This document shows, in pieces, positions 4,554 through 54,722 of a DNA stretch of 64,000 nucleotides. A model generated the notes under the pieces. It did not search any database and was not told where the DNA came from. It saw only the letters and a program-made list of their open reading frames with translations. Positions within the stretch are counted from its first letter, which is position 1, and each line of letters opens with the position of its first letter. Position numbers and translations under genes: made by a program. The DNA is from Psilocybe cubensis (taxonomy: Eukaryota), in contig CM039001.1 in the NCBI GenBank assembly GCA_017499595.2, forward strand, positions 3,844,001 to 3,908,000, read 5' to 3'.

Positions 4554-4571
4554 CACTGCGGGCTCCGATAC

Positions 4572-4955
4572 ATGTTTGATGTCAAACATCGTCAATCAAA
4601 CACATATTATGTAAGAAGACGATGTTTGATGTCAAACATAAGTTGTGTTTGCTGACAAACAAGCATCAAACATAAGTTATGTTTGATAGGCATGTGATAT
4701 CAAACACAACGTATGTTTGACGCCTGTTTGTCAAAGAACACGGGCTTGACAGAAAATCTGTCAAGTTCGCTGTAAGATAACAAACGTACATTGTGTTTGA
4801 TAAATAGTGTTTGATTCCAAATATAACTCCTGTTTGATAATTTGTGCATGAAATCATCCGTATATTCTGTATGTTATCGACCATAAACATCAAACATAAG
4901 TTGTGTAAGAAATCAAACATAATATCTGTTTGAAATCAAACAGATTGTCAAACAG
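4572..4955. repeat. Subterminal TGTTTGA/TCAAACA repeats in both orientations (mirror 54318-54701)
   Basis: More than 15 copies, including palindromes ATGTTTGATGTCAAACAT. Such subterminal repeats are typical of CACTA elements. Confidence 0.85.
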
Positions 4956-5580
4956 ACATCGACACGCTCATCGTGCCGCTCAGCGCGCGCCTCCTCGCGC
5001 GATCAGCGCGCGCTTGACGCGCGATCGGCGCGCGTTGAGCGACACGCCCAGCGATTTTACGGCTATTTTGGCGTCTCGGTGATAAGCGACACACCTCACC
5101 AACGCTACTTAGGCGCTTGTGTATTCAGCGACGAGAACACGCTCTTCATTCAATAACGCTGTATCAGTGACGCATGTTTATTCAGCGAGAAAAAACGTAT
5201 TTTCGAGTGAAATATATGTATTTTTGGGGCTCGGGTGTGTCCTACTACCATACACATAAATTGACAAATGCTACACAGTCAAAGCTGCTTTTCTCCCTTC
5301 TTATTTCTAGAACCTGAGTCTCTATTTCACTGTAGTAGCAATGTATATACTCACATCAATGTATTTTATTCGTTTGCCATCGTTTGCCATTGCCTTCTAT
5401 GAATTGATGTCTCTCAGAACAACTTTCTCGCAGTCTCTTATCACTCACCACACTCCCACTCACTCACCACACTCACTCACACTCACTCACCACACTCACC
5501 ACACTCGCTCTCACTCGCTCAAACACATTCATTCATCGTCCTCGCTCATCACGCCCTCTATCAACATCGATATTCGTACC

Positions 5581-6124
5581 ATGTCCACAATAGTCTCCAA
5601 CATCTTTTCCACCATCGTTTCCTTCGTCAACGGCATCAAATACGGATTCGCGTCGGGATGCGAGATCGTGGAGTGGTTATGCACGTACGGAGGGCCCGCC
5701 TTCGGGGCGATAGCTCGCTACATCAACAAAAATAGCGAAGCGCCAGTTGTTCTGCGAAATCGTAGCGGTATGCCAGTGAGTATTTGTAGCTTTGAACAGC
5801 GTCTTACCGCTCCTTTCAGGAGGAAAGTTGATCAGCGACATGGAGGCTCAACACTCACCAGCCAACGACGCCGATTTCGAGGAACTCATCCGCGTTCGCC
5901 AGGAGATTAAAACCCTGAAAAAAATTCTCGACAATCGAAGCGCACGTACTCGGCCTGGTACATCGGAAGCGCACGAAATTCAGCTCGACCGCTTCGAACT
6001 TGAGCGCAAGAAAGTTCTCAACGATATTGCGATCGAGGCCCAAATACGTGCCACCTACCCTGCGCGAGCCCTGTATCTCGCAATGTGCGAGACATACGAT
6101 GTCGCTCCTGTCCGCACCGACTAG
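5581..6124 (+). CDS. TIR-encoded two-exon protein of unknown function (163 aa)
   Basis: ATG at 5581. A GT-AG intron at 5768-5819 joins MSTIVSNIF...LRNRS in frame to GGKLISDMEAQ...VRTD*. CACT-rich leader upstream and AATAAA near 6311. Confidence 0.7.
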
Positions 6125-6807
6125 GCGCCCCGGCGGGTTTTTCTTGTTGTTATCTTTTCTTCATTTTCTTGTTGCTTTCTTGTTGCTTTCTTGTTGCTTT
6201 CGGTTTATCGCTATCGCTTCGTATTATTGTACATATATCCCTGAATTTTACCATTTGATTCGCTATATTTGTATCATACTCATTGAAGACTCATAATCTC
6301 ATTTCTGAATAATAAAACTCCTTAACATTCGCGGACATCTGTGGCCTATGTTATTTCATGAAGCTTGAAACAACATTTTTTTTATTACCAAACAAGCGTC
6401 GTCAGCACCTTTAGAGGCAAATTAACGCGCGTTTGCCGTTTGGATACCTGCTGCACCGGCACCTGCTGACTCAGTCCTGCCCTTGTCCCTGCTGCAGCTG
6501 ACTCTGACTCTGTACCATGCGTATCGACGAGCTGCGCGACTGCGACGGCGCCGTGTTTGTCTCGTACCCTTCGCCATCCGTGCGGTCCGCGTCCGTCTGC
6601 GGCTTCTGGTAGGTATCCTGCTCCTGCTCGAGATCCTCCTCTGTGAACTCTCCCAGTACGGGTTCCGTGTCCAGGAAGGTATCCTATTGAAAAAAAAAGA
6701 CTGTCAATGTCAATAAAAACACGCACATAGAGAAAGAAGTAAAAAAAAGAAAAGGAAAAAAAAAGAGATAAAACACGCACCATCACCAAAAACAAATTCT
6801 TCTTATC

Positions 6808-7885
6808 ATGGAAACTCCACTCACAGCGGTCCTAACAGAAATCACACCACGCATGTCGTCAACACAAGCAACTCAGCAAGAAAGAGACGTCAATCTTACA
6901 GATGTTCTCCGGGGGCCACTACAATGCCAAAGAATTGAGCGTCTGCGGATGGGGCGAGAATGGATGCAGGACAATGGGCTAGCTATGGAACGTTTGGTAT
7001 CAGTTACGCATGCCAGGAAAGCAAGACGCATCAGGCTCCGATTTCGGGTGTATGCGGATGCGCAGGACTTCAGGGCATACGCAAACAGCAGAGCGGCGAT
7101 GACGGGTTCCACACATCGGGCACTGATAGAAACAAACAGCGCCAGATTCAGCGTAGCCTCCTGGAACTGCAACGGAGGACTCGCGGCATCAATCCATACG
7201 CCAATGTATAGGGATCTCGTACTATCTAATGATGTTACCTTCTTCCAGGAAACACACATGGCGCCAGGGCAAGAGGATATTCTGGATCTACCTCGCGGTT
7301 TTCATCCAGTGGCACGATCGCGACCATGGCGGCACCCCCTGGGCGGCGTCACTGTAATTATACGGGACACTGTAAAATATAGAATATGCGACGAGATCAT
7401 GCACCCAGATATACTGGTCCTTGAGCTCCCATCCCTAATCCTAATCTGCTCGTATCTTGTGCCAGAGAACTCCAGATGGGAATCTTGGACGCATGTGGAC
7501 CCTAAGACATGGCTGGGGGAGGCTATCGAATATTTGTGTCTTGCGATCCAAGGCATACATGATTATAGGCGACCTGAACGCGCGTATAGGCCTGCAACAA
7601 GCAGCGGGATCGCACTTAGTACGAGTGTCTCCAGATAATACCTGCATTGCTAGAGGGAATCGCCTACTGGAAATCATGGGGCAGAATTCTCTGCATGTCG
7701 TGAATGGGACACCAATCGACCGAACGCCGTTCCCACAGTGGACCTCCAGTCAGGCCAACGGAGGCCGCTCTGTCATTGACTACATCATCGTCTCGGAAGA
7801 CGCGCTCCTGTCGTTGGAAGCCATGGAGATAACATGGGTTGGAGGAAGAGTGGATGACCATGCAGGGATACATGTGGAGATGAGA
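6808..7885 (+). pseudogene. Non-LTR retrotransposon (LINE) apurinic-like endonuclease fragment, frameshifted (mirror 51388-52465, -)
   Basis: EEP motifs SWNCNG, FFQETH, GGV, IIGDLNAR, SVIDYIIVS and DDH are split over two frames, with the shift near 7540. No RT domain follows. Confidence 0.85.
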
Positions 7886-8715
7886 TCTTCTCTCACTCTT
7901 GGGCTGATCGTCTCAATAACGCCGCTCACGCGTTCATAAACCGCGAACACGATCGCCTGCCCGGGTGCCACGCGCAGCACGCGGGGGTGATGCCCTTGTA
8001 GAATGACCGCACGCCCTCCATCTTCCACATATCTGCCGCGATCGCGAATATGCGCTGGAAGGAGGATTGGCCTGGAGTTGCTTTGGCTTTTTGTAGACCT
8101 GATATAATTGATTTGAGTAAGAGAGGCTAAGAAAGTGTAGTTAAAAAGGGACGTACGAGTTTTGATAGTGTCTATTGGTGCATTTGAGAACGGACCCATA
8201 GCTCCAGAGATAAGACCAATCATCATGTGTTGGTAGGATGGTAGCTCGACCAAGTCTGGCTGGTACTTATGCGCGAGCTTCTTGATTTCTTGGTACGCGG
8301 TGAAGTTGGCACCTAAGGTGGACACACAAGCCTTAAGAAAGGCGTTCTTCGGCTATTCACGAATGAAGACGTACCCTGATTCGTAGCTTGTCTCAGTGGC
8401 GTCAAAGAGACACCACGATACAATGTCGAGATTCCTTCCTCACGAATGATGGTGTACACAGCATGACCAGCATTACGGTACCGAGGCGCTTCAAGAGGAT
8501 CAGCCAATGAATGTTGTTGAGCTTGCAGAGGAATCTTCACCACTTCCATGGGCGTCACGATGGCAACAGCTTCCGTCACTCCAGCCCCAAGACCGGCTAT
8601 ACGCAAGTAATTAAAAGATGACATCAGCTCAACACCTTCGCGGCAAGAGAAAAGAATTACATACCAATGAAGATATTCCCAATGCTCGTCTTCCCTGTTT
8701 GCTTATCGGCAAGCC
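7885..8715 (-). pseudogene. Captured fragment of a mitochondrial succinate-fumarate carrier (SFC1/ACR1-like), introns retained (mirror 50558-51388, +)
   Basis: AGLGAGVTEAVAIVTPMEVVKI, RQATNQGANFTAY, GPFSNAPIDTIKTR, RVAPGQAIVFAVYE. Three GT-AG introns. N-terminus missing. Frameshift at GITP/RVLR. Confidence 0.9.
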
Positions 8716-8999
8716 AACGATGGTACATCTCCTCTCAACTTTTTAATAACCCTTGCAGTATGTTTTTCTCTGTCTATTATTTGGCAATACAATTAACACA
8801 CGATAGACTTCGACGATGCCAGCGGGAACATCTGTGTCTATATCCTCCCCAAGTGGGATGATCAATCTTGACAAGGTACGGGGAATTCAGGCTCCAAGAA
8901 ATGCTGAGGAAACGACACGACCCAGACATCGAGGAATGGTATGCCATTGACTACGAAAGTCTTGCAAATTACCCGCCTTAACTCAAGCATAGGTTTGGA

Positions 9000-9510
9000 C
9001 GTCTTCGGCTGAAGGGCCCATGGGCTCATCCGATGCAGCGAGGTTGCACTGGTGGAACGCGCGCACCTGGTCAAGGGCATGCACCGACGACAGTGTGCAG
9101 AACTCCACGGTTGTGGAAGACCACAAAGTCATCTTCGCGCCAGTCGTGTGGATACACCAGCTGCTCCAAAATTCAGCTTCGAACAAAAAAGCGCAGACAA
9201 TATGCGAACTTACAGAAGGAGCGATCGCAGGTCATTGCTACGACTCCTGGAACAGGTGCAGATCAAGTGTCTGCGACGAATACTGGGTTTGGGTCCGAGG
9301 TCGATAACGGCAGTTCTTTATTCTGAAACAGGAGTACTTCCCATTAAATATAGGCGGTTAATCCTAGTACTACGTTACGACATCCCTCCCCGGAGAGCGA
9401 TAGTTAGGATGGTTGAGAGACCTAGTCCGGGCACTGGATCTACTTCCCTGCCCGGCGCAAGTAACAGCAAGAGAACTGTGGGAATCGGAGGGCACTGCGA
9501 AGGTGATCAA
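9000..9510 (+). pseudogene. LINE ORF2 C-terminal (post-RT) fragment (mirror ~49763-50273, -)
   Basis: LEQVQIKCLRRILGLGPRSITAVLYSETGVLPIKYRRLILVLRY resembles the region downstream of RT in fungal LINEs. Confidence 0.7.
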
Positions 9511-11765
9511 CGCATCTACGCCCGCTCCTCCCGATCCGATCCCGATCCTCCCGCTCCAGCATCCGCAACCGCAACAGCATCCGCATCAGTGTCCGTATAC
9601 ACACTAATCACATTCTCTGCCTACACATATACACATTTCTTAATCAGATAAAATCAAACTCCCACAACGAAAGAGAAGTGACGTACCATCTTCATCTTCA
9701 TCCCCACCTTCCCCTTCATCCGTCGAATTCGAATGCGAAACGGGAAACACCAGAAACAGAGCTCAAAGCAGGCGATGGCGCTCTCTCCCCTGCACCTCCT
9801 TGTTCGGAACCCTCACCCGAACCCTCAACGACCCAACTACGACTCACAGACCCGTTGTCCGATACAAACGACGACGATATCTCCTGCGTGTCGTGCGAGA
9901 TGGAAATAGACTCTGACTCTGTCCCTGAAAGCGAAAGGTACGGCGAGTGCAAAGAAACAGGCGAACGGGTACAACGACGCGGAATGCAACGACGCGGCGC
10001 GCGGCACGAACACGGGTGCGGGCGGCGAGAGTGTGAACGGTGCGGGCGCTGGTGTGGGTGATGGTGAGCAGGTGCGTGAAGCGTTTGATGAGGCTGGGGC
10101 TGAGCCTGAGCCTGTTGTGGAGGCGTTTGACGAGGCTGGGGCGGAGGTGGAGTGGAAGGGTACGGTGCAAGTGGGTACACACTCCTCTTATTCGCCGGTG
10201 CTTGTGCTGGTGTATTCCCATTCCCAATCCCCAACACCTGCTGCTCCCTATTCCCTTTACCCACCCGCGACCGTGCCTGCAACTCCCGCTTCACCGCATC
10301 CACATCCATCGCGCGCAGCACCTGCTCCGAGAGCGTCGGGAGCAGCGCGAGGAGGATGTTGCGATGTCTTCGTGTGTTTGGGTGAATTGAGTGCGGAGGC
10401 TTGTAGGTTGTAGTAAGTTAAATAAGTGTAGGGGAAGGGAGGGAAAAGAGGAAAAGGGGTGTTAGTTGTGTTTAGAAAATTAGAGATAAGAATGGGAATA
10501 GAATAGGATAAAAAAGAATGGGATACAATAAAAGCAAAGAAAATAAAAGTAAAAGCAAAAGCCCATCCGACGGTTCTTCTATCCATCCTGCTATCCGTCC
10601 TGAACCATCTATCCACCCGTATCAATCAACCCGTACATGCATGCATCGGCCAAAACGATCTATGCGAAGATGAAGACGAAGGCGAAGGATACACCCTCGA
10701 ACAAACAACAACATGAACAAGAACCAGAACCGTGCTCGTTCAAAGTACCTCTGCAAGATGGATGGAATAGAGAACCTCCGAAACTGGAATCTGTCCATTC
10801 CACCGAAATCTATCCAAATAAACCCACAAAAAAAACAATCCAAAAAACATACTCTCTAAAAACCACACTCCAAAAACAAAAAACCCCAAAAACCAGAAAA
10901 GAAAGAAAGAAAGAAATAAAAAAATAAAATAAAAAAACACTCACACATCCCTCGCCTGTTCCTCGGCGTCCATCTTCTGCCTCACCTCATCAAGCCGCAC
11001 GCGCATGAACCCGCGCGCGTCCTATAGGCCGCCGATGATGGTGGTCGTTTTGAGTGCATTATTCAACTTTGCCAGATGTTGCTGACGTTGCGAGCTAACA
11101 TTCTCCACCTCCATTTCATCCTCTTCGATAATACCGCCGGCCACACGACCATGAGCGTCCTCGCCTTCCGGGTGATCAATAGTCCTCTTTCTCTCTGTCT
11201 GTCGAGATGACCCCATCCCTATCAAGCGCGTCAGTGGACAACGCAGTCGACGCTAGATTCGTCATGGACGGCGCGGCAGACCACCCATTCACATCCCCTC
11301 CAATACTCCCACTAACACTCCAACTAAGCGTCATCGCACCAAACGAGCCAAACGGATCCGGGCCCTACTTGGCAGGAGCCATCACAAGCGGTGTATTCCC
11401 CCCTTTCTTCCCGATCCCAATGCCCATACTCATCCCCATCCCCTTGCCACCCCCAGGCGACGCCAGCCGCGAAAGCGTGTTCAAAAACGTCGACTTTCGT
11501 TTCTTCTCCTTCCCCTTCTTCTGCTGCGCGAGGGGCAGACCGGCGGGGTCGATGGGCAGCGATGGGATTTTGAGGCCCGGGTGCGTACTGCGCAGTTTCA
11601 CGTCGAGTTCGATGAGCTCCGCGGCGGTGCGTATGAGCGTGAGGTTGTGTGTGGGTGCTGGTGTGTGCAGTGTTGTGTTTGTTATCACAGGTGATGGTGG
11701 TCGGTGCATGGGAGTAGGTGCGCGGCGGCCGTGGTGGTGGTGGTAGAGATAGAAAGATCGGCGCG

Positions 11766-11807
11766 GGTGGTGGTGGTGGTGGTGGTGGTGGTGGTGGTGG
11801 TGGTGGT
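11766..11807. repeat. (GGT)n/(CCA)n microsatellite, 12 nt longer in the right arm (~47454-47507)
   Basis: Direct reading. The poly-Pro ORF is 233 aa on the left and 237 aa on the right. Confidence 0.95.
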
Positions 11808-12429
11808 GAGAGTCGACGAGCGGGGGTTGGATTCGACGATGTCGGCAGCGTGGATAGCGACGCGGACGATGCAGCGGATGAAGACGACGACGATGACGTC
11901 GGTGTGGGCGGGACGAAGTGAATGGTTAAAGTAGACGCAGACATCATACAGTGGGGAAAACCAAAAGCGCCACGATGAGATGATGAGATGATGGGAGTGT
12001 ACAGGTTCGTGTCTAGTGCTTTCATTTCGTCTTGATTTCGTGTTTGGGTTTGGGTTTATAAGTCGGAATTCGAGTTTGTCTGGTGGGTGTTGTGTAAGAT
12101 ATGCTATGCTATGGTGTGATATGTGGTGTGTAACAGTGTAAGATGTTCAGAGCGTACTGCAAGTCGGTGTGAGGTAAGATGAGCTGAGGCGCTAGTGTCA
12201 GCGTCGGTGTAGGCGTAGGGTGTAACCGTAGAACACAAACTGGGTTGGCAAACCAAAAGCCAATGTGAAGGTCGATAGTCGATAAACGGTGTTGGTGTAG
12301 GTGTAAGTGGGCAGTGGGTATACCACGCCATTCTCCCCGCTTCAGATCGAAAGGCAAAGTCAAACAAAGAGTCAACAGTCGAATCGAAAACCCGCAAAAA
12401 GGGGTTGGTGGTGGTGGTAGCACCCCACT

Positions 12430-13425
12430 GCACAACTTTGCCTGGTCTTCCTCGTCGTCTTCGTCGTCTTTTTCTTCTTCGAAATGAGGCCGTCGGAGAG
12501 GATGTGGACGTCGATGTCTACGCCCGTTTCCATGCCCATGTCCCTCATTGTCGACTTCATCGTCTTCATGGAAATCGTCCTCATCATCCTCTGTATCGTC
12601 CGATTCGCTGGGACTTACTAACCCAGGCTCGTCCCCGTCCTGCGCCACTGTAACATGTTGGTTGAATTTTTTCTTCCTCGCTTGCTCTAATTCAAATTGT
12701 ACATCCTCCTGGTCCGTTTCTCCCTGGTTTTCATCGCGTACCGTATGATGTGGGTTGAAGCTTTTGGCATTCATCTTTTTCTTCCTATCCCTAAGAGCGG
12801 CTATTTGGGCGTCTGCTCGCCATCTGTTGGGGTCCACGGCGATGTTTGTGTCCAGATTCTGACGCATTGCCTCCATACGTAGAGCCTCGATCTGACGCTC
12901 ATTGAAAGCGGCGCGTTCCCTCCACGCTCAAGGTTCAGGCTGGCAGGGTCGAGCGGCGCAAAATGGCGGACGAGCCTGGGTTGATGTTGCAGTTGTGGTT
13001 GCGGTGGAGGCGCGTGAACGGGGGGCAGATCGGGGAGCTCTTCCTCTTCGAATACGCCCAGGCGAGCATTCTGCGACATCCATTCACGGAGGAGGAAGAC
13101 GGCAACGAAGATGAGTACAATGAGCGATGCGATGATCAGGCCGGTGAATATGTCTGCCGAGGGCGCTAACCATGCCGGATGTGAAGAAACCTTGGAGAAA
13201 AAATGCTGTTGGATGGCGGCCCAGGGGCTTCGTAGCGAATTCTATCGATAGAGGAAGCTATCAGAAGTGGATATTAGATTGAGATCCCGGATGAGTACGT
13301 ACGCGGATTCTCCCATGGAAAAGACGTCCACACTGTTATGCATGGCAATATTCCTAGCCAGATTGTAGCAACAGCTATAATACGAACAACAGGGAGAAAA
13401 ATAATTGTTGTAAAAGCCGCCGAAT
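12430..13425 (-). pseudogene. Captured fragment of a Doa10/MARCH6-like ER E3 ubiquitin ligase gene (mirror 45836-46831, +)
   Basis: RRLLQQLFFSLLF, IWLGILP, FSMGES and ADIFTGLIIASLIVLIFVAVFLLREWMSQNARLGVFEE, followed by an acidic loop. Stops and frameshifts present; no RING-CH domain. Confidence 0.7.
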
Positions 13426-13510
13426 TACCCGTCTAACGTCACTGTCCGCAGTCCCTAAGCCTAAGTCGTAAGTAAGAGGGAAAGGATACAAAAAATACCC
13501 TCGAAAAATC

Positions 13511-13713
13511 TCGCATGCCCGAGGCATGGTGTTCATGGTATCATCTGGAATACAACTTCCAGATCGCAGTTTGATGTAAGCCAATTGGACAGGAATGCTG
13601 CTTAAGCCGTCCGTTCGAGTAGTATTTGGCCAGATCACTGAGGAGACCATACGCCAACCTCACTAGAGAATCAGAGCGTTCCTCGTCGAAGGCAGCGGTG
13701 AACAAGCTCCAAC
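13511..13713 (-). pseudogene. Captured C-terminal fragment of importin-beta (Kap95-like) (mirror 45548-45750, +)
   Basis: LELVHRC / DEERSDSLVRLAYGLLSDLAKYYSNGRLKQ / DTMNTMPRACE in shifting frames resembles the final HEAT repeat of fungal importin beta-1. Confidence 0.65.
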
Positions 13714-14461
13714 TTAAGTAGTCGAGCACGCCAAAGATGTCGCTGAGCGTCCTAGTGAACTGCGTCGTGATGGGCACGACTTTTGCCTGGCGAGGTGACG
13801 CACATGGACGACAATGCTCTCGTCTTTTCTGTGCCGCTCCGCCGCGAAACGGAGGTGAAACAGTTGTAGAAGTAGCCTAAGTGAAGTGGCAGCCAACCAG
13901 AGATGTCAGTAGGAATCGTTAGTGTTCGGGATAGGAGATGGGCTATACTATGTAAGTTACTACAGAAAATTAGGTAGACAGAACGAAACATACCTGTGTA
14001 GAACAAGAGGAAGGAAATGGTGAAACGAACGACTTGAGTGAGAATCGTGTGCGTCTAATCGCATGGTTAGCAAACGGCGGGTACACTGGAGTTGCGACTT
14101 ACCAGACATGCTTCGAAACTTTTGCGATGTCTTGTTCGCTGACCTGTATCTGCGCTGAATGACTGACCCAATATACAACACTGTGCAGAAAATTGTGTTA
14201 CTTACGGCGAGCGTAGAGATCTCATACATGCTTAACATCTGTGTTGGCACTTCGATTACACCTCACGCACAATATCATTCGGTCCCCATTTCGCTCCCTG
14301 TAGTAGTATTTGTATTATTTACATGGTACACTACGCTAGACTGCCTACATGGATAGCAGCGCTACTCGGTCTATATGTGCTACTTCACCCGCTAGATGAG
14401 CATGGTTGGAACAGAAGAAGAAGAAAGCGTGAGAATATGGCCAGCACGCCAACAAGTACCG

Positions 14462-14544
14462 CAGAAGTTCGATGCCGCTCATGCCGTCGCCAAATTGGTG
14501 ATGCGCGTGATTGGTGGCACGGCATCAGCGGCATCAAACTTCTG
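14462..14544. repeat. 83-bp imperfect hairpin; copies at 16834-16916, 32368-32450, 41873-41955, 44717-44799; half-sites at 15844-15879 and 30369-30393
   Basis: CAGAAGTTCGATGCCGCTCATGCCGT ... ACGGCATCAGCGGCATCAAACTTCTG. Confidence 0.9.
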
Positions 14545-15288
14545 TCCTGTATCATGGCGATTTTGTGACGGTGTGACGCCTTTCCACCTCTCTCTCAACA
14601 CTCACTCCTATGAAGCACGTCGTACGTAGAGATGGTTCGCATACGAGCTTACTGTAGTAGTAGCACTTTAGTGTAGACTCTAATACCATAAACTTAGCTA
14701 GCTGCGTACTCTAGTAATACAATTTTAGTTCAAGTGACATAGACCCGGCTTGGAAGGGCAGAGGAAATAGTCGGGTGAGCGACACAGAACGAGGAGGAAC
14801 TACAATTCATTTGGATAGTGAATTACGCAGAAACATAGGTGCGAATAGTATTTGTATTTACTATCAGGCACAAAACACAAGCCAAAAACACATTCTACAG
14901 CACACCCGCCGCCTCTTCGCCTGCCAGACCCGTATTCGAGCGTCACAAACATAGGTGAGGAATCATCTTTGCTATTAGTGCAGGAAACATATTCTACAGC
15001 ACATGTGCCGCCTCATTGCTTTACAGACCTCACTTATTCAACGACGCACCCACCTACATTCAAGAATTGAACGTTGAATGCTGCCATAACTTTATGTTTT
15101 GTACGACGCTGCCTACTGTAAGCACCCGATCTGCGAGGTACCCTCTTTGCAGGTTGCCGTTTTAATTTGGATTTCACGATATCGGGACTTGTGTAGGATG
15201 TGCACATGGCTTCCGTCGACTCTCCTGCTAATGCAACTATATGCAAGTCTATTCTCATCTGACACGAGTAACGTAAATATCTCATTTA

Positions 15289-15315
15289 CCCCCCCCCCCC
15301 CCCCCCCCCCCCCCC
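15289..15315. repeat. Poly-C tract (27 nt)
   Basis: Direct reading. Confidence 0.95.
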
Positions 15316-20966: not shown

Positions 20967-21114
20967 AATCTGCATCTGCGTATCCTTCTAATTTGAAACG
21001 TGCCCTAGATTTCTTTTGTACATTTATGATATCGGATAATGACATTTTGCTGAGTAACCTGACTACATGCATCGAAGCTATGATCTACACAGTTTTCCAT
21101 TATGTTCTCAGTGG

Positions 21115-39739: not shown

Positions 39740-39772
39740 TCACCCTCTACCGTCATTCAGTCCCGCCAAACT

Positions 39773-42639: not shown

Positions 42640-44069
42640 AACTGGGTTTGGGGCAGTCTGTAAGTTGCGATGGAGGTGTATGCAATCAAGGATTCACGAC
42701 GCTTTATAAGAAGCAAGAACAAAGGCAATCTCCGCGACAAAATATCCTGACCAATCTTGACAAAGGTATTAACTAAATGAGCGCTTTATTCGCTCAACAC
42801 CCATCTGAACATAGAAAATGACCTACCAATGAGATATATAGAAGCTAGAGAAGGTCATGTATTTCTACATACCCACACTTACCCCGGAATGCGAGATTTT
42901 GGGAAGGTGATTTCATGATTTCAACTGGCGGAGATCATCAATGATCAATGGGATAATATATAGTTTTAATATCCACTGTCGGTCATACCGCCATAACAAC
43001 GTTTATCGTCATTATGACGGCGCCAAAGGGCGTGATTACGTGGCTGCATGAGCGACATTGGAATTGTTTGCTATGTCAAAGCGCTCCTGCGACAATGCCA
43101 TCTTTATCCCCTTTCCCATAACTCTTCGACAAAGAGAAACAAGATAAGATGGATCTTTGTTCAGAAAACATTTAAAAGGTCAATAGGTTAATATGTACTC
43201 AGTACGATATTTCCTGCTGTAAGAAACTTCATGATGCCCGTGACGAGGGAAGGCCACGATGTAATTCTGAAGCATATCGTCATCGTTTCGTGGCTGATCC
43301 GTACTAATCATTCCTACAGGTCGATAACCACAGTGATGACAATGACTATCAGAATCAGAAGCAAATGATCGAAGCAAAGTTGAAAGAACTAGTAAGTATT
43401 TTAGAACATCATTTTATTAAATCATGACAAAACTTTGCGATGACAGATTTCAATGATGCGGGCTGTATTTTGTGACACCCATGGTAGACGCGAAAACGAC
43501 GATGAAGACGGAAAAAATAGTGAACAAGACGAGCAAGACGAGGACTTGGATCCTTGGCCGGCGAACAGCAAACACTCAAGGCGCGTTCAATGGCGGCTGG
43601 GGCGCAAAACTAAGCGATCTCGAAGGAATTTCAGGCGCAGAATGAGGGGTGCTTCGCGCTCTCCCAACAAGCTCCGCGGGTCCGACTCCGACTAGTGGGC
43701 AGACAACAAGGTATGGGGTTGTGCGCTGGGCAATGGCCGTGTTAGACTGTTGAACGAGATTTTAAACCACCCACTGGCAGGACAAATTGGGGTTGGAAAG
43801 TCACCGAAGATTATTATATCAAGTAGAGCTTGGGTTAATAAATTTAGTATATCAATTGCAGATATTGATGAAGCGACATACTTCATAGATTGAAGAGAAT
43901 TATTAGACGGGAACATCTCGCGTGTTCGAGAGAGTAAATTTGGCTTACAGTACGTGTAAAACAATTGAGACTGGTGCCGCTCGAATACCTGATAGAAAAA
44001 AGACGGAGCCAATCTATAGTTGCATAAGCAGGAGACTCGACGGGAGCCATGTGCAAATCCTGTATATTC

Positions 44070-47000
44070 CAAGTCCCGATATCGTGAAATCCAAATTAAA
44101 ACGGCAACCTGCAAAGAGGGTACCTCGCAGACCGGGTGCTTACAGTAGGCAGCGTCGTACAAAACATAAAGTTATGGCAGCATTCAACGTTCAATTCTTG
44201 AATGTAGGTGGGTGCGTCGTTGAATAAGTGAGGTCTGTAAAGCAATGAGGCGGCACATGTGCTGTAGAATATGTTTCCTGCACTGATAGCAAAGATGATT
44301 CCTCACCTATGTTTGTGACGCTCGAATACGGGTCTGGCAGGCGAAGAGGCGGCGGGTGTGCTGTAGAATGTGTTTTTGGCTTGTGTTTTGTGCCTGATAG
44401 TAAATACAAATACTATTCGCACCTATGTTTCTGCGTAATTCACTATCCAAATGAATTGTAGTTCCTCCTCGTTCTGTGTCGCTCACCCGACTATTTCCTC
44501 TGCCCTTCCAAGCCGGGTCTATGTCACTTGAACTAAAATTGTATTACTAGAGTACGCAGCTAGCTAAGTTTATGGTATTAGAGTCTACACTAAAGTGCTA
44601 CTACTACAGTAAGCTCGTATGCGAACCATCTCTACGTACGACGTGCTTCATAGGAGTGAGTGTTGAGAGAGAGGTGGAAAGGCGTCACACCGTCACAAAA
44701 TCGCCATGATACAGGACAGAAGTTTGATGCCGCTGATGCCGTGCCACCAATCACGCGCATCACCAATTTGGCGACGGCATGAGCGGCATCGAACTTCTGC
44801 GGTACTTGTTGGCGTGCTGGCCATATTCTCACGCTTTCTTCTTCTTCTGTTCCAACCATGCTCATCTAGCGGGTGAAGTAGCACATATAGACCGAGTAGC
44901 GCTGCTATCCATGTAGGCAGTCTAGCGTAGTGTACCATGTAAATAATACAAATACTACTACAGGGAGCGAAATGGGGACCGAATGATATTGTGCGTGAGG
45001 TGTAATCGAAGTGCCAACACAGATGTTAAGCACGTATGAGATCTCTACGCTCGCCGTAAGTAACACAATTTTCTGCACAGTGTTGTATATTGGGTCAGTC
45101 ATTCAGCGCAGATACAGGTCAGCGAACAAGACATCGCAAAAGTTTCGAAGCATGTCTGGTAAGTCGCAACTCCAGTGTACCCGCCGTTTGCTAACCATGC
45201 GATTAGACGCACACGATTCTCACTCAAGTCGTTCGTTTCACCATTTCCTTCCTCTTGTTCTACACAGGTATGTTTCGTTCTGTCTACCTAATTTTCTGTA
45301 GTAACTTACATAGTATAGCCCATCTCCTATCCCGAACACTAACGATTCCTACTGACATCTCTGGTTGGCTGCCACTTCACTTAGGCTACTTCTACAACTG
45401 TTTCACCTCCGTTTCGCGGCGGAGCGGCACAGAAAAGACGAGAGCATTGTCGTCCATGTGCGTCACCTCGCCAGGCAAAAGTCGTGCCCATCACGACGCA
45501 GTTCACTAGGACGCTCAGCGACATCTTTGGCGTGCTCGACTACTTAAGTTGGAGCTTGTTCACCGCTGCCTTCGACGAGGAACGCTCTGATTCTCTAGTG
45601 AGGTTGGCGTATGGTCTCCTCAGTGATCTGGCCAAATACTACTCGAACGGACGGCTTAAGCAGCATTCCTGTCCAATTGGCTTACATCAAACTGCGATCT
45701 GGAAGTTGTATTCCAGATGATACCATGAACACCATGCCTCGGGCATGCGAGATTTTTCGAGGGTATTTTTTGTATCCTTTCCCTCTTACTTACGACTTAG
45801 GCTTAGGGACTGCGGACAGTGACGTTAGACGGGTAATTCGGCGGCTTTTACAACAATTATTTTTCTCCCTGTTGTTCGTATTATAGCTGTTGCTACAATC
45901 TGGCTAGGAATATTGCCATGCATAACAGTGTGGACGTCTTTTCCATGGGAGAATCCGCGTACGTACTCATCCGGGATCTCAATCTAATATCCACTTCTGA
46001 TAGCTTCCTCTATCGATAGAATTCGCTACGAAGCCCCTGGGCCGCCATCCAACAGCATTTTTTCTCCAAGGTTTCTTCACATCCGGCATGGTTAGCGCCC
46101 TCGGCAGACATATTCACCGGCCTGATCATCGCATCGCTCATTGTACTCATCTTCGTTGCCGTCTTCCTCCTCCGTGAATGGATGTCGCAGAATGCTCGCC
46201 TGGGCGTATTCGAAGAGGAAGAGCTCCCCGATCTGCCCCCCGTTCACGCGCCTCCACCGCAACCACAACTGCAACATCAACCCAGGCTCGTCCGCCATTT
46301 TGCGCCGCTCGACCCTGCCAGCCTGAACCTTGAGCGTGGAGGGAACGCGCCGCTTTCAATGAGCGTCAGATCGAGGCTCTACGTATGGAGGCAATGCGTC
46401 AGAATCTGGACACAAACATCGCCGTGGACCCCAACAGATGGCGAGCAGACGCCCAAATAGCCGCTCTTAGGGATAGGAAGAAAAAGATGAATGCCAAAAG
46501 CTTCAACCCACATCATACGGTACGCAATGAAAACCAGGGAGAAACGGACCAGGAGGATGTACAATTTGAATTAGAGCAAGCGAGGAAGAAAAAATTCAAC
46601 CAACATGTTACAGTGGCGCAGGACGGGGACGAGCCTGGGTTAGTAAGTCCCAGCGAATCGGACGATACAGAGGATGATGAGGACGATTTCCATGAAGACG
46701 ATGAAGTCGACAATGAGGGACATGGGCATGGAAACGGGCGTAGACATCGACGTCCACATCCTCTCCGACGGCCTCATTTCGAAGAAGAAAAAGACGACGA
46801 AGACGACGAGGAAGACCAGGCAAAGTTGTGCAGTGGGGTGCTACCACCACCACCAACCCCTTTTTGCGGGTTTTCGATTCGACTGTTGACTCTTTGTTTG
46901 ACTTTGCCTTTCGATCTGAAGCGGGGAGAATGGCGTGGTATACCCACTGCCCACTTACACCTACACCAACACCGTTTATCGACTATCGACCTTCACATTG

Positions 47001-50000
47001 GCTTTTGGTTTGCCAACCCAGTTTGTGTTCTACGGTTACACCCTACGCCTACACCGACGCTGACACTAGCGCCTCAGCTCATCTTACCTCACACCGACTT
47101 GCAGTACGCTCTGAACATCTTACACTGTTACACACCACATATCACACCATAGCATAGCATATCTTACACAACACCCACCAGACAAACTCGAATTCCGACT
47201 TATAAACCCAAACCCAAACACGAAATCAAGACGAAATGAAAGCACTAGACACGAACCTGTACACTCCCATCATCTCATCATCTCATCGTGGCGCTTTTGG
47301 TTTTCCCCACTGTATGATGTCTGCGTCTACTTTAACCATTCACTTCGTCCCGCCCACACCGACGTCATCGTCGTCGTCTTCATCCGCTGCATCGTCCGCG
47401 TCGCTATCCACGCTGCCGACATCGTCGAATCCAACCCCCGCTCGTCGACTCTCACCACCACCACCACCACCACCACCACCACCACCACCACCACCACCAC
47501 CACCACCCGCGCCGATCTTTCTATCTCTACCACCACCACCACGGCCGCCGCGCACCTACTCCCATGCACCGACCACCATCACCTGTGATAACAAACACAA
47601 CACTGCACACACCAGCACCCACACACAACCTCACGCTCATACGCACCGCCGCGGAGCTCATCGAACTCGACGTGAAACTGCGCAGTACGCACCCGGGCCT
47701 CAAAATCCCATCGCTGCCCATCGACCCCGCCGGTCTGCCCCTCGCGCAGCAGAAGAAGGGGAAGGAGAAGAAACGAAAGTCGACGTTTTTGAACACGCTT
47801 TCGCGGCTGGCGTCGCCTGGGGGTGGCAAGGGGATGGGGATGAGTATGGGCATTGGGATCGGGAAGAAAGGGGGGAATACACCGCTTGTGATGGCTCCTG
47901 CCAAGTAGGGCCCGGATCCGTTTGGCTCGTTTGGTGCGATGACGCTTAGTTGGAGTGTTAGTGGGAGTATTGGAGGGGATGTGAATGGGTGGTCTGCCGC
48001 GCCGTCCATGACGAATCTAGCGTCGACTGCGTTGTCCACTGACGCGCTTGATAGGGATGGGGTCATCTCGACAGACAGAGAGAAAGAGGACTATTGATCA
48101 CCCGGAAGGCGAGGACGCTCATGGTCGTGTGGCCGGCGGTATTATCGAAGAGGATGAAATGGAGGTGGAGAATGTTAGCTCGCAACGTCAGCAACATCTG
48201 GCAAAGTTGAATAATGCACTCAAAACGACCACCATCATCGGCGGCCTATAGGACGCGCGCGGGTTCATGCGCGTGCGGCTTGATGAGGTGAGGCAGAAGA
48301 TGGACGCCGAGGAACAGGCGAGGGATGTGTGAGTGTTTTTTTATTTTATTTTTTTATTTCTTTCTTTCTTTCTTTTCTGGTTTTTGGGGTTTTTTGTTTT
48401 TGGAGTGTGGTTTTTAGAGAGTATGTTTTTTGGATTGTTTTTTTTGTGGGTTTATTTGGATAGATTTCGGTGGAATGGACAGATTCCAGTTTCGGAGGTT
48501 CTCTATTCCATCCATCTTGCAGAGGTACTTTGAACGAGCACGGTTCTGGTTCTTGTTCATGTTGTTGTTTGTTCGAGGGTGTATCCTTCGCCTTCGTCTT
48601 CATCTTCGCATAGATCGTTTTGGCCGATGCATGCATGTACGGGTTGATTGATACGGGTGGATAGATGGTTCAGGACGGATAGCAGGATGGATAGAAGAAC
48701 CGTCGGATGGGCTTTTGCTTTTACTTTTATTTTCTTTGCTTTTATTGTATCCCATTCTTTTTTATCCTATTCTATTCCCATTCTTATCTCTAATTTTCTA
48801 AACACAACTAACACCCCTTTTCCTCTTTTCCCTCCCTTCCCCTACACTTATTTAACTTACTACAACCTACAAGCCTCCGCACTCAATTCACCCAAACACA
48901 CGAAGACATCGCAACATCCTCCTCGCGCTGCTCCCGACGCTCTCGGAGCAGGTGCTGCGCGCGATGGATGTGGATGCGGTGAAGCGGGAGTTGCAGGCAC
49001 GGTCGCGGGTGGGTAAAGGGAATAGGGAGCAGCAGGTGTTGGGGATTGGGAATGGGAATACACCAGCACAAGCACCGGCGAATAAGAGGAGTGTGTACCC
49101 ACTTGCACCGTACCCTTCCACTCCACCTCCGCCCCAGCCTCGTCAAACGCCTCCACAACAGGCTCAGGCTCAGCCCCAGCCTCATCAAACGCTTCACGCA
49201 CCTGCTCACCATCACCCACACCAGCGCCCGCACCGTTCACACTCTCGCCGCCCGCACCCGTGTTCGTGCCGCGCGCCGCGTCGTTGCATTCCGCGTCGTT
49301 GTACCCGTTCGCCTGTTTCTTTGCACTCGCCGTACCTTTCGCTTTCAGGGACAGAGTCAGAGTCTATTTCCATCTCGCACGACACGCAGGAGATATCGTC
49401 GTCGTTTGTATCGGACAACGGGTCTGTGAGTCGTAGTTGGGTCGTTGAGGGTTCGGGTGAGGGTTCCGAACAAGGAGGTGCAGGGGAGAGAGCGCCATCG
49501 CCTGCTTTGAGCTCTGTTTCTGGTGTTTCCCGTTTCGCATTCGAATTCGACGGATGAAGGGGAAGGTGGGGATGAAGATGAAGATGGTACGTCACTTCTC
49601 TTTCGTTGTGGGAGTTTGATTTTATCTGATTAAGAAATGTGTATATGTGTAGGCAGAGAATGTGATTAGTGTGTATACGGACACTGATGCGGATGCTGTT
49701 GCGGTTGCGGATGCTGGAGCGGGAGGATCGGGATCGGATCGGGAGGAGCGGGCGTAGATGCGTTGATCACCTTCGCAGTGCCCTCCGATTCCCACAGTTC
49801 TCTTGCTGTTACTTGCGCCGGGCAGGGAAGTAGATCCAGTGCCCGGACTAGGTCTCTCAACCATCCTAACTATCGCTCTCCGGGGAGGGATGTCGTAACG
49901 TAGTACTAGGATTAACCGCCTATATTTAATGGGAAGTACTCCTGTTTCAGAATAAAGAACTGCCGTTATCGACCTCGGACCCAAACCCAGTATTCGTCGC

Positions 50001-53000
50001 AGACACTTGATCTGCACCTGTTCCAGGAGTCGTAGCAATGACCTGCGATCGCTCCTTCTGTAAGTTCGCATATTGTCTGCGCTTTTTTGTTCGAAGCTGA
50101 ATTTTGGAGCAGCTGGTGTATCCACACGACTGGCGCGAAGATGACTTTGTGGTCTTCCACAACCGTGGAGTTCTGCACACTGTCGTCGGTGCATGCCCTT
50201 GACCAGGTGCGCGCGTTCCACCAGTGCAACCTCGCTGCATCGGATGAGCCCATGGGCCCTTCAGCCGAAGACGTCCAAACCTATGCTTGAGTTAAGGCGG
50301 GTAATTTGCAAGACTTTCGTAGTCAATGGCATACCATTCCTCGATGTCTGGGTCGTGTCGTTTCCTCAGCATTTCTTGGAGCCTGAATTCCCCGTACCTT
50401 GTCAAGATTGATCATCCCACTTGGGGAGGATATAGACACAGATGTTCCTGCTGGCATCGTCGAAGTCTATCGTGTGTTAATTGTATTGCCAAATAATAGA
50501 CAGAGAAAAACATACTGCAAGGGTTATTAAAAAGTTGAGAGGAGATGTACCATCGTCGGCTTGCCGATAAGCAAACAGGGAAGACGAGCATTGGGAATAT
50601 CTTCATTGGTATGTAATTCTTTTCTCTTGCCGCGAAGGTGTTGAGCTGATGTCATCTTTTAATTACTTGCGTATAGCCGGTCTTGGGGCTGGAGTGACGG
50701 AAGCTGTTGCCATCGTGACGCCCATGGAAGTGGTGAAGATTCCTCTGCAAGCTCAACAACATTCATTGGCCGATCCTCTTGAAGCGCCTCGGTACCGTAA
50801 TGCTGGTCATGCTGTGTACACCATCATTCGTGAGGAAGGAATCTCGACATTGTATCGTGGTGTCTCTTTGACGCCACTGAGACAAGCTACGAATCAGGGT
50901 ACGTCTTCATTCGTGAATAGCCGAAGAACGCCTTTCTTAAGGCTTGTGTGTCCACCTTAGGTGCCAACTTCACCGCGTACCAAGAAATCAAGAAGCTCGC
51001 GCATAAGTACCAGCCAGACTTGGTCGAGCTACCATCCTACCAACACATGATGATTGGTCTTATCTCTGGAGCTATGGGTCCGTTCTCAAATGCACCAATA
51101 GACACTATCAAAACTCGTACGTCCCTTTTTAACTACACTTTCTTAGCCTCTCTTACTCAAATCAATTATATCAGGTCTACAAAAAGCCAAAGCAACTCCA
51201 GGCCAATCCTCCTTCCAGCGCATATTCGCGATCGCGGCAGATATGTGGAAGATGGAGGGCGTGCGGTCATTCTACAAGGGCATCACCCCCGCGTGCTGCG
51301 CGTGGCACCCGGGCAGGCGATCGTGTTCGCGGTTTATGAACGCGTGAGCGGCGTTATTGAGACGATCAGCCCAAGAGTGAGAGAAGATCTCATCTCCACA
51401 TGTATCCCTGCATGGTCATCCACTCTTCCTCCAACCCATGTTATCTCCATGGCTTCCAACGACAGGAGCGCGTCTTCCGAGACGATGATGTAGTCAATGA
51501 CAGAGCGGCCTCCGTTGGCCTGACTGGAGGTCCACTGTGGGAACGGCGTTCGGTCGATTGGTGTCCCATTCACGACATGCAGAGAATTCTGCCCCATGAT
51601 TTCCAGTAGGCGATTCCCTCTAGCAATGCAGGTATTATCTGGAGACACTCGTACTAAGTGCGATCCCGCTGCTTGTTGCAGGCCTATACGCGCGTTCAGG
51701 TCGCCTATAATCATGTATGCCTTGGATCGCAAGACACAAATATTCGATAGCCTCCCCCAGCCATGTCTTAGGGTCCACATGCGTCCAAGATTCCCATCTG
51801 GAGTTCTCTGGCACAAGATACGAGCAGATTAGGATTAGGGATGGGAGCTCAAGGACCAGTATATCTGGGTGCATGATCTCGTCGCATATTCTATATTTTA
51901 CAGTGTCCCGTATAATTACAGTGACGCCGCCCAGGGGGTGCCGCCATGGTCGCGATCGTGCCACTGGATGAAAACCGCGAGGTAGATCCAGAATATCCTC
52001 TTGCCCTGGCGCCATGTGTGTTTCCTGGAAGAAGGTAACATCATTAGATAGTACGAGATCCCTATACATTGGCGTATGGATTGATGCCGCGAGTCCTCCG
52101 TTGCAGTTCCAGGAGGCTACGCTGAATCTGGCGCTGTTTGTTTCTATCAGTGCCCGATGTGTGGAACCCGTCATCGCCGCTCTGCTGTTTGCGTATGCCC
52201 TGAAGTCCTGCGCATCCGCATACACCCGAAATCGGAGCCTGATGCGTCTCGCTTTCCTGGCATGCGTAACTGATACCAAACGTTCCATAGCTAGCCCATT
52301 GTCCTGCATCCATTCTCGCCCCATCCGCAGACGCTCAATTCTTTGGCATTGTAGTGGCCCCCGGAGAACATCTGTAAGATTGACGTCTCTTTCTTGCTGA
52401 GTTGCTTGTGTTGACGACATGCGTGGTGTGATTTCTGTTAGGACCGCTGTGAGTGGAGTTTCCATGATAAGAAGAATTTGTTTTTGGTGATGGTGCGTGT
52501 TTTATCTCTTTTTTTTTCCTTTTCTTTTTTTTACTTCTTTCTCTATGTGCGTGTTTTTATTGACATTGACAGTCTTTTTTTTTCAATAGGATACCTTCCT
52601 GGACACGGAACCCGTACTGGGAGAGTTCACAGAGGAGGATCTCGAGCAGGAGCAGGATACCTACCAGAAGCCGCAGACGGACGCGGACCGCACGGATGGC
52701 GAAGGGTACGAGACAAACACGGCGCCGTCGCAGTCGCGCAGCTCGTCGATACGCATGGTACAGAGTCAGAGTCAGCTGCAGCAGGGACAAGGGCAGGACT
52801 GAGTCAGCAGGTGCCGGTGCAGCAGGTATCCAAACGGCAAACGCGCGTTAATTTGCCTCTAAAGGTGCTGACGACGCTTGTTTGGTAATAAAAAAAATGT
52901 TGTTTCAAGCTTCATGAAATAACATAGGCCACAGATGTCCGCGAATGTTAAGGAGTTTTATTATTCAGAAATGAGATTATGAGTCTTCAATGAGTATGAT

Positions 53001-54719
53001 ACAAATATAGCGAATCAAATGGTAAAATTCAGGGATATATGTACAATAATACGAAGCGATAGCGATAAACCGAAAGCAACAAGAAAGCAACAAGAAAGCA
53101 ACAAGAAAATGAAGAAAAGATAACAACAAGAAAAACCCGCCGGGGCGCCTAGTCGGTGCGGACAGGAGCGACATCGTATGTCTCGCACATTGCGAGATAC
53201 AGGGCTCGCGCAGGGTAGGTGGCACGTATTTGGGCCTCGATCGCAATATCGTTGAGAACTTTCTTGCGCTCAAGTTCGAAGCGGTCGAGCTGAATTTCGT
53301 GCGCTTCCGATGTACCAGGCCGAGTACGTGCGCTTCGATTGTTGAGAATTTTTTTCAGGGTTTTAATCTCCTGGCGAACGCGGATGAGTTCCTCGAAATC
53401 GGCGTCGTTGGCTGGTGAGTGTTGAGCCTCCATGTCGCTGATCAACTTTCCTCCTGAAAGGAGCGGTAAGACGCTGTTCAAAGCTACAAATACTCACTGG
53501 CATACCGCTACGATTTCGCAGAACAACTGGCGCTTCGCTATTTTTGTTGATGTAGCGAGCTATCGCCCCGAAGGCGGGCCCTCCGTACGTGCATAACCAC
53601 TCCACGATCTCGCATCCCGACGCGAATCCGTATTTGATGCCGTTGACGAAGGAAACGATGGTGGAAAAGATGTTGGAGACTATTGTGGACATGGTACGAA
53701 TATCGATGTTGATAGAGGGCGTGATGAGCGAGGACGATGAATGAATGTGTTTGAGCGAGTGAGAGCGAGTGTGGTGAGTGTGGTGAGTGAGTGTGAGTGA
53801 GTGTGGTGAGTGAGTGGGAGTGTGGTGAGTGATAAGAGACTGCGAGAAAGTTGTTCTGAGAGACATCAATTCATAGAAGGCAATGGCAAACAATGGCAAA
53901 CGAATAAAATACATTGATGTGAGTATATACATTGCTACTACAGTGAAATAGAGACTCAGGTTCTAGAAATAAGAAGGGAGAAAAGCAGCTTTGACTGTGT
54001 AGCATTTGTCAATTTATGTGTATGGTAGTAGGACACACCCGAGCCCCAAAAATACATATATTTCACTCGAAAATACGTTTTTTCTCGCTGAATAAACATG
54101 CGTCACTGATACAGCGTTATTGAATGAAGAGCGTGTTCTCGTCGCTGAATACACAAGCGCCTAAGTAGCGTTGGTGAGGTGTGTCGCTTATCACCGAGAC
54201 GCCAAAATAGCCGTAAAATCGCTGGGCGTGTCGCTCAACGCGCGCCGATCGCGCGTCAAGCGCGCGCTGATCGCGCGAGGAGGCGCGCGCTGAGCGGCAC
54301 GATGAGCGTGTCGATGTCTGTTTGACAATCTGTTTGATTTCAAACAGATATTATGTTTGATTTCTTACACAACTTATGTTTGATGTTTATGGTCGATAAC
54401 ATACAGAATATACGGATGATTTCATGCACAAATTATCAAACAGGAGTTATATTTGGAATCAAACACTATTTATCAAACACAATGTACGTTTGTTATCTTA
54501 CAGCGAACTTGACAGATTTTCTGTCAAGCCCGTGTTCTTTGACAAACAGGCGTCAAACATACGTTGTGTTTGATATCACATGCCTATCAAACATAACTTA
54601 TGTTTGATGCTTGTTTGTCAGCAAACACAACTTATGTTTGACATCAAACATCGTCTTCTTACATAATACGTGTTTGATTGACGATGTTTGACATCAAACA
54701 TGTATCGGAGCCCGCAGTG
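44070..54719 (-). repeat. Right terminal inverted repeat arm (~10.65 kb)
   Basis: Mirror of 4554-15191, with about a dozen substitutions noticed and a 12-nt microsatellite difference. Confidence 0.97.
53149..53692 (-). CDS. Second copy of the TIR-encoded two-exon gene
   Basis: Mirror of 5581-6124, with one D/N difference (KILDN vs KILNN). Confidence 0.7.
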
Positions 54720-54722
54720 AAC

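Follow-up and report, generated by a model that had tools for sequence, protein, structure and literature searches.

CACTA/EnSpm transposons, of which En/Spm of maize is a member, generate target-site duplications of 2-3 bp and normally carry terminal inverted repeats of tens of base pairs, and cut-and-paste transposons are generally considered to be size-limited. The Starships of ascomycetes are giant elements with a tyrosine-recombinase captain (DUF3435) at one end and without long terminal inverted repeats, while foldback elements consist of long inverted ends of tandem subrepeats with little or no unique sequence in the middle. The element considered here occupies positions 4554-54719 (50,166 bp) of a 64,000-nucleotide stretch of Psilocybe cubensis DNA (assembly GCA_017499595.2, contig CM039001.1, positions 3,844,001 to 3,908,000; the whole stretch is referred to below as the window). 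It is very probably a real and recently amplified CACTA element of 50 kb, with inverted ends of 10.7 kb.

Several described systems resemble this element in one respect or another. Termini of the CACTG type have been reported for the active CNIRT6 element of Cryptococcus neoformans (PMC12810828), and in the enzymes of EnSpm-type elements a CxxC and an H(3-4)H motif are described as preceding the last acidic residue (PMC12730594). Plavaka elements, which are related to CACTA and occur in Agaricomycetes, end in TGT..ACA with a 2-bp duplication or in CATCA..TGATG with a duplication of 2-3 bp (PMC12730594). With respect to size, En/Spm families of 16-20 kb in a red alga were called 'significantly enlarged' (PMC6431247), the EnSpm maximum in Ectocarpus is given as 15.2 kb (PMC12477816), and an element of 20.5 kb is described in soybean (PMC2613891). 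For the giant KDZ, EnSpm, and Sola-1 elements of algae the largest stated length is 30.3 kb, in addition to an active KDZ element of 31.7 kb; nested insertions and accessory genes are fixed among their copies, which implies that transposition continued after the elements had grown (PMC12477816). Teratorn of medaka, a fusion of a piggyBac transposon with a herpesvirus, uses its internal terminal inverted repeats, located at the boundaries between repeat and unique sequence, more than its outer ones (PMC6431247).

Termini, inverted arms, and read depth

The element begins with CACTGCGGGCTCC at 4554-4566 and ends with the reverse complement of this sequence at 54707-54719, each of which was found a single time in the window by sequence search; the outermost letters, CACTG at 4554 and CAGTG at 54715-54719, lie inside a perfect terminal match of 50 bp. 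The trinucleotide AAC stands directly outside both ends, the chance of a 3-bp flank match being 1/64. The motif TGTTTGA has 44 matches on both strands of the window versus 13.2 +/- 4.0 expected (44 was reached in 0 of 100 shuffles), and 34 of these are confined to two subterminal clusters (Table 1), 17 at each end and within 400 bp of it. The CACTG/CAGTG termini, the AAC duplication, and the subterminal repeats listed in a preliminary description of this DNA, which had been made from the sequence alone, are all confirmed in this way. By analogy with En/Spm, from which an accessory-protein role of subterminal repeats is taken, the TGTTTGA motifs are presumed to be binding sites of an accessory protein. 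A search of the whole element revealed neither a second CACTGCGGG nor another TGTTTGA cluster in its interior, and neither of the two is found at the inner ends of the arms at 15241 or 44015.

A core of 28.8 kb is enclosed by two arms, which form an inverted repeat spanning 10,638-10,688 bp. Self-BLASTN aligns 44015-54719 with 15241-4554 over 10,705 columns at 99.69% identity (16 mismatches and 3 gaps), in agreement with the nearly identical arms of ~10.6 kb noticed earlier; a repeat search yields exact or near-exact complementarity over 7,255 nt and 3,426 nt, and 34 columns differ in a MAFFT alignment of the arms. Up to 15191, the MAFFT differences comprise 11 substitutions and one 12-bp (GGT)4 indel at 11765, while the last 50 bp (15191-15241) contain 6 substitutions and a 5-bp indel. 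All 11 substitutions in the former stretch are transitions and 9 of them are located at CpG, which points to deaminated methylated cytosine in two real copies and not to assembly noise.

Each arm ends internally in 1.3 kb of a repeat, R, which is present in two further copies within the core, one in each orientation. The right-arm copy of R runs 290 bp further in step with core copy b, while the left-arm copy breaks off. Near-identity of the arms stops sharply at 15191, beyond which an older, more diverged homology continues to 15241. In the window copy, both arms carry T at 6028 and 11674 (mirror positions 53245 and 47599); these are CpG-to-TpG changes, C being found at the two positions in all four sequencing runs that were mapped (e.g., in 269 of 285 reads at 6028 and 214 of 214 at 11674 in run X14). 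Since T is common to both arms and the identity ends so abruptly, the sequence suggests that exchange between the arms (conversion) is still ongoing, in which case the 0.1% divergence of the arms would not date the fold-back event.

Public sequencing runs provide evidence on the number and the unity of the copies. Among the 16 runs listed, 9 contain 50% or more of the words sampled from 2001-12000, and four (X14, raw Illumina reads; X1, X6, and X9, Logan contigs) were mapped on 1001-21000. In X14, the mean depth is 31.7x in the flank (1001-3668), 308x in the arm (5003-13673), and 156x in the core (15675-21000), i.e., an arm:core ratio of 1.98 and a core:flank ratio of 4.9, and it is even across the eight bins of the core and the thirteen bins of the arm. 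There are about five copies of the core and about ten copies of the arm per copy of the flank. The depth of ~495x over 13674-15007, which is mostly repeat R, fits the three to four copies of R per element seen in the window. The contig depths of flank, arm, and core are 18, 170, and 91 in X1 (arm:core 1.87) and 25, 95, and 47 in X9 (arm:core 2.02), and the core:flank ratio varies among the runs (about 4.9, 5.0, 3.0, and 1.9). Contigs of 10-11 kb at core depth differ from the window at 1-5 positions, which indicates that the copies are almost identical.

The two ends of the arm behave differently in the reads. At the outer terminus (4554), 369 X14 reads extend outward with a consensus agreement as low as 0.38, which implies many different flanks; at the inner end (15191), 247 reads run off with an agreement of 0.99, and the sequence into which they run is that of the right arm's inner end, also present in R copy b. 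Repetition that starts from the exact terminus, two arms per core, uniformity inside, and variety outside together argue for a transposon that moves as a unit; depth, varied flanks, and the single inner architecture thus support the giant DDE (CACTA) transposon of the preliminary description. Besides, X14 contains a same-strand joint between 4315 and 4554 (9 reads) and an opposite-strand joint between 4313 and 4554 (8 reads). As the element presents the same sequence at either end, these two joints are interpreted as the left and right junctions of another insertion, which duplicated TGT at 4313-4315. The near-identity of the copies, the difference in depth between runs, and this second insertion are indirect signs that the element may be active at present.

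Several observations weigh against the interpretation as a recently amplified 50-kb transposon. The mapped stretch is confined to the left flank, the left arm, and the first 5.8 kb of the core, with 23 kb of core and the right flank outside it, and the read evidence consists of 151-nt reads and contigs; reads of this length do not distinguish the inner junction of the right arm from R copy b. In X6, contig depths of 12.5, 57, and 37 correspond to an arm:core ratio of 1.5 and not 2, and Logan contig depths should not be equated with copy numbers. The second insertion, supported by 17 reads, is located inside a 370-bp repeat (4112-4481); it may sit in another copy of that repeat. Loose reads at 4554 are more numerous than expected from ten arms, and another 65 reads depart from the window at 4613; the number of loose ends is probably inflated by shorter relatives with the same terminal 60 bp. 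The activity of the transposase (see below) is predicted from its sequence, its catalytic residues are assigned from conservation and not from structure, and both the template-switch origin of the arms and the conversion between them are deduced from one single copy.

Alternative explanations of these data differ in how well they survive. The usual mobile unit might be smaller, with the 50-kb form as one variant of it and with much of the extra depth contributed by deletion derivatives or by arm-only fold-back elements. Deletion variants do occur in some X14 copies (7030->9808 in 10 reads and 14063->14146 in 38 reads, as well as the joint 15530->15769), and the X6 ratio, the reads diverging at 4613, and the restriction of the depth data to 5.8 kb of the core also favor such a unit. 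However, arm-only derivatives would raise the arm:core ratio above 2 and core-only forms would lower it, whereas the raw reads give 1.98 and the contigs of X1 and X9 give 1.87 and 2.02; the even depth in all bins and the single alternative sequence at the inner junction (0.99) likewise make a smaller unit improbable. Segmental duplication or rearrangement of a region holding an ordinary CACTA element, instead of transposition, might also have produced the copies, as the large inverted repeats and the four copies of R show that recombination has reshaped the element. The flank, however, has single-copy depth, repetition starts exactly at base 4554, many flanks are present in the reads, the second insertion shows a 3-bp duplication, and AAC stands on both sides of the window copy, which renders this origin decidedly unlikely.

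Composite elements are known from Ac/Ds of maize and from pairs of bacterial insertion sequences (IS), and two inverted 10.7-kb non-autonomous elements might similarly bracket a separate autonomous one. Each arm would then need an inner terminus, but neither CACTGCGGG nor a motif cluster is located at 15241 or 44015, on their inner side the arms end within repeat R and lose their similarity over 50 bp, and varied flanks are not observed there; a composite of this kind is hardly credible. Closer termini, envisaged in the preliminary description as a threat to the proposed unit, are not found inside the element, and the inner arm edge leads into one alternative sequence where the outer terminus leads into many. 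A fold-back assembly error in one arm, the other threat envisaged, can be set aside almost entirely: assemblers are known to fail on long, nearly identical inverted repeats, but reads of an independent Illumina run cover the arm twice as deeply as the core, the arms differ by 11 transitions (9 at CpG) and a microsatellite indel, and the right flank begins with AAC.

The surroundings of the core and of the element contain further repeats. A 370-bp insertion resembling a miniature inverted-repeat transposable element (window 4112-4481) has inverted ends of ~50 bp (GGTTGGACCCAGGGGGCACCCACC... and a near-complement); the X9 contig lacks it (joint 4111->4482), and X1 and X6 show an increased contig depth over it. 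In the right flank, outside the element, a 350-bp sequence (62837-63182) matches its own reverse complement at 87%. A run of ~30 C is located at 15291-15316, just inside the boundary between the left arm and the core.

Genes of the core and gene fragments in the arms

The transposase gene, on the minus strand of the core, consists of four open exons (approximately 24930-24274, 24254-22512, 22441-21875, and 21837-21133), which are collinear with residues 83-1361 of a 1364-residue protein from Gymnopilus dilepis (P0240) and with further full-length homologues. For the main frame, a Pfam search gives Transposase_21 with an E-value of 4.8e-9 (36.2 bits versus a cut-off of 28.6), and the gene is apparently intact, as the preliminary description had it. 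Across 16 aligned sequences, D242 and D338 do not vary and C357xxC360 hardly does, and the motifs HHMAMH and FPFER are located in the next exon; catalytic residues among these positions are putative. The arrangement of D, D, CxxC, HxxxxH, and FPFER agrees with the description of EnSpm-type enzymes (PMC12730594). Homologues comprise 119 near-length and 13 longer proteins from Agaricales and other Agaricomycetes, some of which also carry the Plavaka Pfam domain PF18759. The best of them is only 53% identical, which indicates that this lineage of transposases is not represented in the protein collection searched.

Table 1. Features of the 50-kb element and of its immediate flanks (positions in the window)
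Feature	Position	Strand or orientation	Basis
Left target-site duplication, AAC	4551..4553	.	Read directly; matches 54720-54722
Right target-site duplication, AAC	54720..54722	.	Read directly
Left subterminal cluster, 17 TGTTTGA/TCAAACA motifs, several as tail-to-tail pairs	4573..4954	.	Motif count
Right subterminal cluster, 17 TGTTTGA/TCAAACA motifs	54319..54700	.	Motif count
Left arm, terminal inverted repeat; last 50 bp diverged	4554..15241	+	Self-BLASTN, repeat search, MAFFT, read depth
Right arm, inverted copy of the left; 12 extra bases, (GGT)4, at 47496-47507	44015..54719	-	Self-BLASTN, repeat search, MAFFT
Repeat R, copy a, inner end of left arm	13915..15241	+	BLAST comparison; depth ~495x in X14
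Repeat R, copy b, core	31377-33563	inverted	BLAST comparison
Repeat R, copy c, core	40755-42009	same orientation as a	BLAST comparison
Repeat R, copy d, inner end of right arm	43725-45346	inverted	BLAST comparison
238-bp segment of the window copy, absent from most X14 copies	15531..15768	.	Joint 15530->15769: 74 X14 reads, one X1 contig
CACTA/EnSpm DDE transposase, four open exons	21133..24930	-	Pfam PF02992 and collinear alignment
Companion gene A, several exons, tail to tail with transposase	19210..20496	+	8 of 80 related loci
Companion gene B	17713..18589	-	tblastx, 6 of 80 related loci: L001, L007, L008, L009, L013, L014
287-residue open frame	34381..35244	-	Homologue at L001 1417-2292, 31% over 296 residues, E 2e-16
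124-residue open frame	39850..40224	+	46% over 103 residues; conserved upstream of transposase in L002
Spt5-like protein, NGN-like and KOW motifs, 458-residue frame	28151..29527	-	KOW 31.7 bits versus cut-off 22.3
856-residue coiled-coil protein, internal tandem duplications	36311..38881	-	Direct repeats D1, D2, D6
Endonuclease/exonuclease/phosphatase-like frames, possibly endonuclease of a long interspersed nuclear element (LINE)	6772..7939, mirror 51334-52501	+	PF03372 23.1 bits, PF14529 24.1 bits, both just under cut-offs
5'-truncated mitochondrial succinate/fumarate carrier (SFC1-like)	7783..8738, mirror 50535-51490	-	Two Mito_carr repeats, 42.7 and 52.3 bits
Peroxin-3-like fragment	9716..10417, mirror 48856-49557	-	PF04882 29.7 bits, profile positions 63-142 of 458 only
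Importin-beta-like TPR fragment	13541..13876	-	PF25574 22.6 bits, under cut-off 29.1; profile positions 338-373 of 388

The other genes of the core fall into two groups according to their recurrence in 80 related loci from metagenome contigs, with which the core was compared by tblastx and tblastn. The first group accompanies the transposase. In the locus L001, homologues of the 287-residue frame, the transposase, gene A, and gene B are located within ~8.5 kb, with the 287-residue homologue directly upstream of the transposase; in the window, the 287-residue frame is separated from the transposase gene by 9.4 kb. Gene B, for which a Pfam search gave no match, aligns to the C-terminus of the protein P0243. 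Gene A recurs in L001, L007, L008, L011, L013, L014, L040, and L061. Its identification as a WD40 protein is no more than a weak lead: the L001 homologue gives only sub-threshold matches (best E 0.0011), and the fused model P0247 has no counterpart of its WD40 part in the window. Three open frames at 19773-20966 (plus strand), within gene A and beyond it, share one reading frame and are split only by single stop codons; introns may account for these stops, or the window copy of gene A may be damaged. Judging from the homologous loci, at least four of the core genes are companions of the transposase family and not cargo. The figure of about seven further core genes in the preliminary description is a fair count of the long open frames; their presentation as the element's own cargo has to be corrected for these companions.

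The second group, formed by the Spt5-like and the 856-residue coiled-coil genes, provides the best candidates for acquired cargo. The Spt5-like frame was found in 0 of the 80 related loci; in Atlas, the clusters closest to it consist of KOW1_SPT5 proteins, predominantly from Basidiomycota (score 0.90). In the same resource, several clusters of 50-168 similar short KOW1_SPT5 proteins, again mostly from Basidiomycota, raise the question of whether this whole short family is carried by transposons. The 856-residue frame is absent from all 80 related loci, matches coiled-coil Pfam families only below threshold, and is assigned by Atlas to generic coiled-coil clusters. Its duplications within 36500-38400 measure 240-440 bp and are 95-99% identical, which points to recent growth of the gene by tandem duplication.

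The arms contain pieces of unrelated genes. According to tblastn, the carrier fragment covers residues about 80-314 of 319-residue orthologues, i.e., it is devoid of the first ~80 residues, and it shares 45-63% identity with orthologues from agarics; one close relative, an uncharacterised protein of Psilocybe cubensis, is 94% identical. Near the start of this fragment, the X1, X6, and X9 contigs branch at 8717, 8764, and 8877, and depth rises by ~20-40% in that bin; these ~160 bp are thus also present elsewhere in the genome, perhaps at the source gene. The three minus-strand frames next to the Peroxin-3-like fragment gave no Pfam match, and a PDB sequence search with the endonuclease-like and Peroxin-3-like frames gave no match either. 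These stretches are old, decayed fragments of host-type genes and not working cargo. The role of the arms as gene carriers is not borne out, as only pieces of a carrier, of Peroxin-3, and of importin-beta and an endonuclease-like piece are recognized in them.

Proposed mechanism and origin

The element is probably autonomous, a young and multi-copy CACTA/EnSpm transposon. Its transposase would cut at the two outermost CACTG ends, the same end being used twice here, and the whole 50 kb would then move by cut-and-paste, while the copy number would grow whenever the emptied site was repaired with a sister or homologous copy as template. The long ends might go back to the repair of an excision gap, or to a stalled fork, at which synthesis jumped to the wrong end and produced an inverted copy of it. 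Synthesis would then have rejoined the core inside repeat R, which is present there in both orientations, and the original second end would have been lost; gene conversion from arm to arm may have kept the arms alike since then. The present element is probably the module of its smaller relative L001, enlarged by the Spt5-like gene, the coiled-coil gene, internal duplications, and arms of captured fragments.

A more far-reaching proposal is tentative and is put forward as a possibility. A DDE transposase might routinely move 50 kb between identical ends, with the arms re-templated by conversion or at each gap repair and therefore symmetrical and self-repairing, and the Spt5-like cargo may interfere with transcription-coupled silencing by the host. 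If so, the element would be a DDE counterpart of Starships in mushroom-forming fungi.

The sizes that have been called remarkable so far are ~15-20 kb for EnSpm and ~30 kb for KDZ elements (PMC6431247, PMC12477816). A CACTA element of 50 kb that is present in several copies of more than 99.9% identity and in numbers varying between strains would, if true, raise this ceiling; it would also imply that a transposase of the CACTA superfamily is able to work on a pair of identical ends, and that basidiomycetes possess a large gene-moving vehicle independent of a tyrosine recombinase. The 10.7-kb inverted arms constitute a test case for palindrome-like conversion and for genome instability caused by inverted repeats. 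In practical terms, five copies amount to ~250 kb, which short-read assemblies will collapse or break.

Comparison with known elements

The assignment to CACTA/EnSpm is based on the CACT(A/G)...(C/T)AGTG termini, the 3-bp duplication, the subterminal arrays in two orientations, and the DDE transposase with Transposase_21. The terminal inverted repeats of ~10-30 bp that are usual, though not defining, for CACTA elements are replaced here by the repeats of more than 10 kb. Among the 80 related metagenome loci, those of at least 6 kb contain no CACT(A/G) end pairs. Self-BLAST of the loci of at least 9 kb revealed inverted repeats in L008, L041, L046, and L068, whose outer edges are not terminus-like. 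In L041, the repeat (359-945 and 12965-13548) measures 597 bp at 91% identity and is cut by the contig end, and in L046 (4257-4694 and 11177-11617) it measures 450 bp at 79%; the transposases of both loci are ~31% identical to that of the window.

Other classes of elements were considered and rejected. The ends of Plavaka differ from the CACTG..CAGTG ends with their 3-bp duplication observed here. A foldback element is not compatible with arms of complex, unique sequence that contain gene fragments and enclose a core of 28.8 kb. Identity with a Starship was rejected as well: no tyrosine-recombinase captain (DUF3435) was detected among the 63 window frames scanned with Pfam (frames over ~55-100 residues), and the hallmarks are those of a DDE transposon instead.

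In the literature compared, no CACTA element with kilobase-scale inverted ends, none above 20 kb in mushrooms, and no paper on Psilocybe transposons was found; Repbase and Dfam were outside its scope, and the supplement of PMC12730594 (Table S1, Figure S2, and Data S1) might list long elements. With fungal CACTA/EnSpm elements, such as CNIRT6 and the families of Kojima 2025 (PMC12730594), the present element shares the type of termini, the 3-bp duplication, the subterminal repeats, and the transposase; it differs from them in its length of 50.2 kb, in inverted repeats of 10.7 kb instead of tens of base pairs, and in having the same end on both sides. The giant KDZ, EnSpm, and Sola-1 elements of algae are likewise enlarged cut-and-paste elements with accessory genes, but kilobase-scale terminal inverted repeats are not mentioned for them in the available part of their description (PMC12477816). 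Teratorn also has long inverted repeats, but these come with internal termini, of which the present element has none (PMC6431247). Fragments of unrelated host-type genes, located here in the arms, are reminiscent of Pack-CACTA and Pack-MULE elements, which are, however, small and non-autonomous, whereas the present element encodes a transposase and its companion genes (PMC6379663). As in Starships, which are mentioned in PMC11162782 and PMC13066641, a fungal mobile element tens of kilobases long carries extra genes. Set against the members of its superfamily in the parts of the literature compared, the element is larger and has far longer end repeats, and it is thus an extreme CACTA element.

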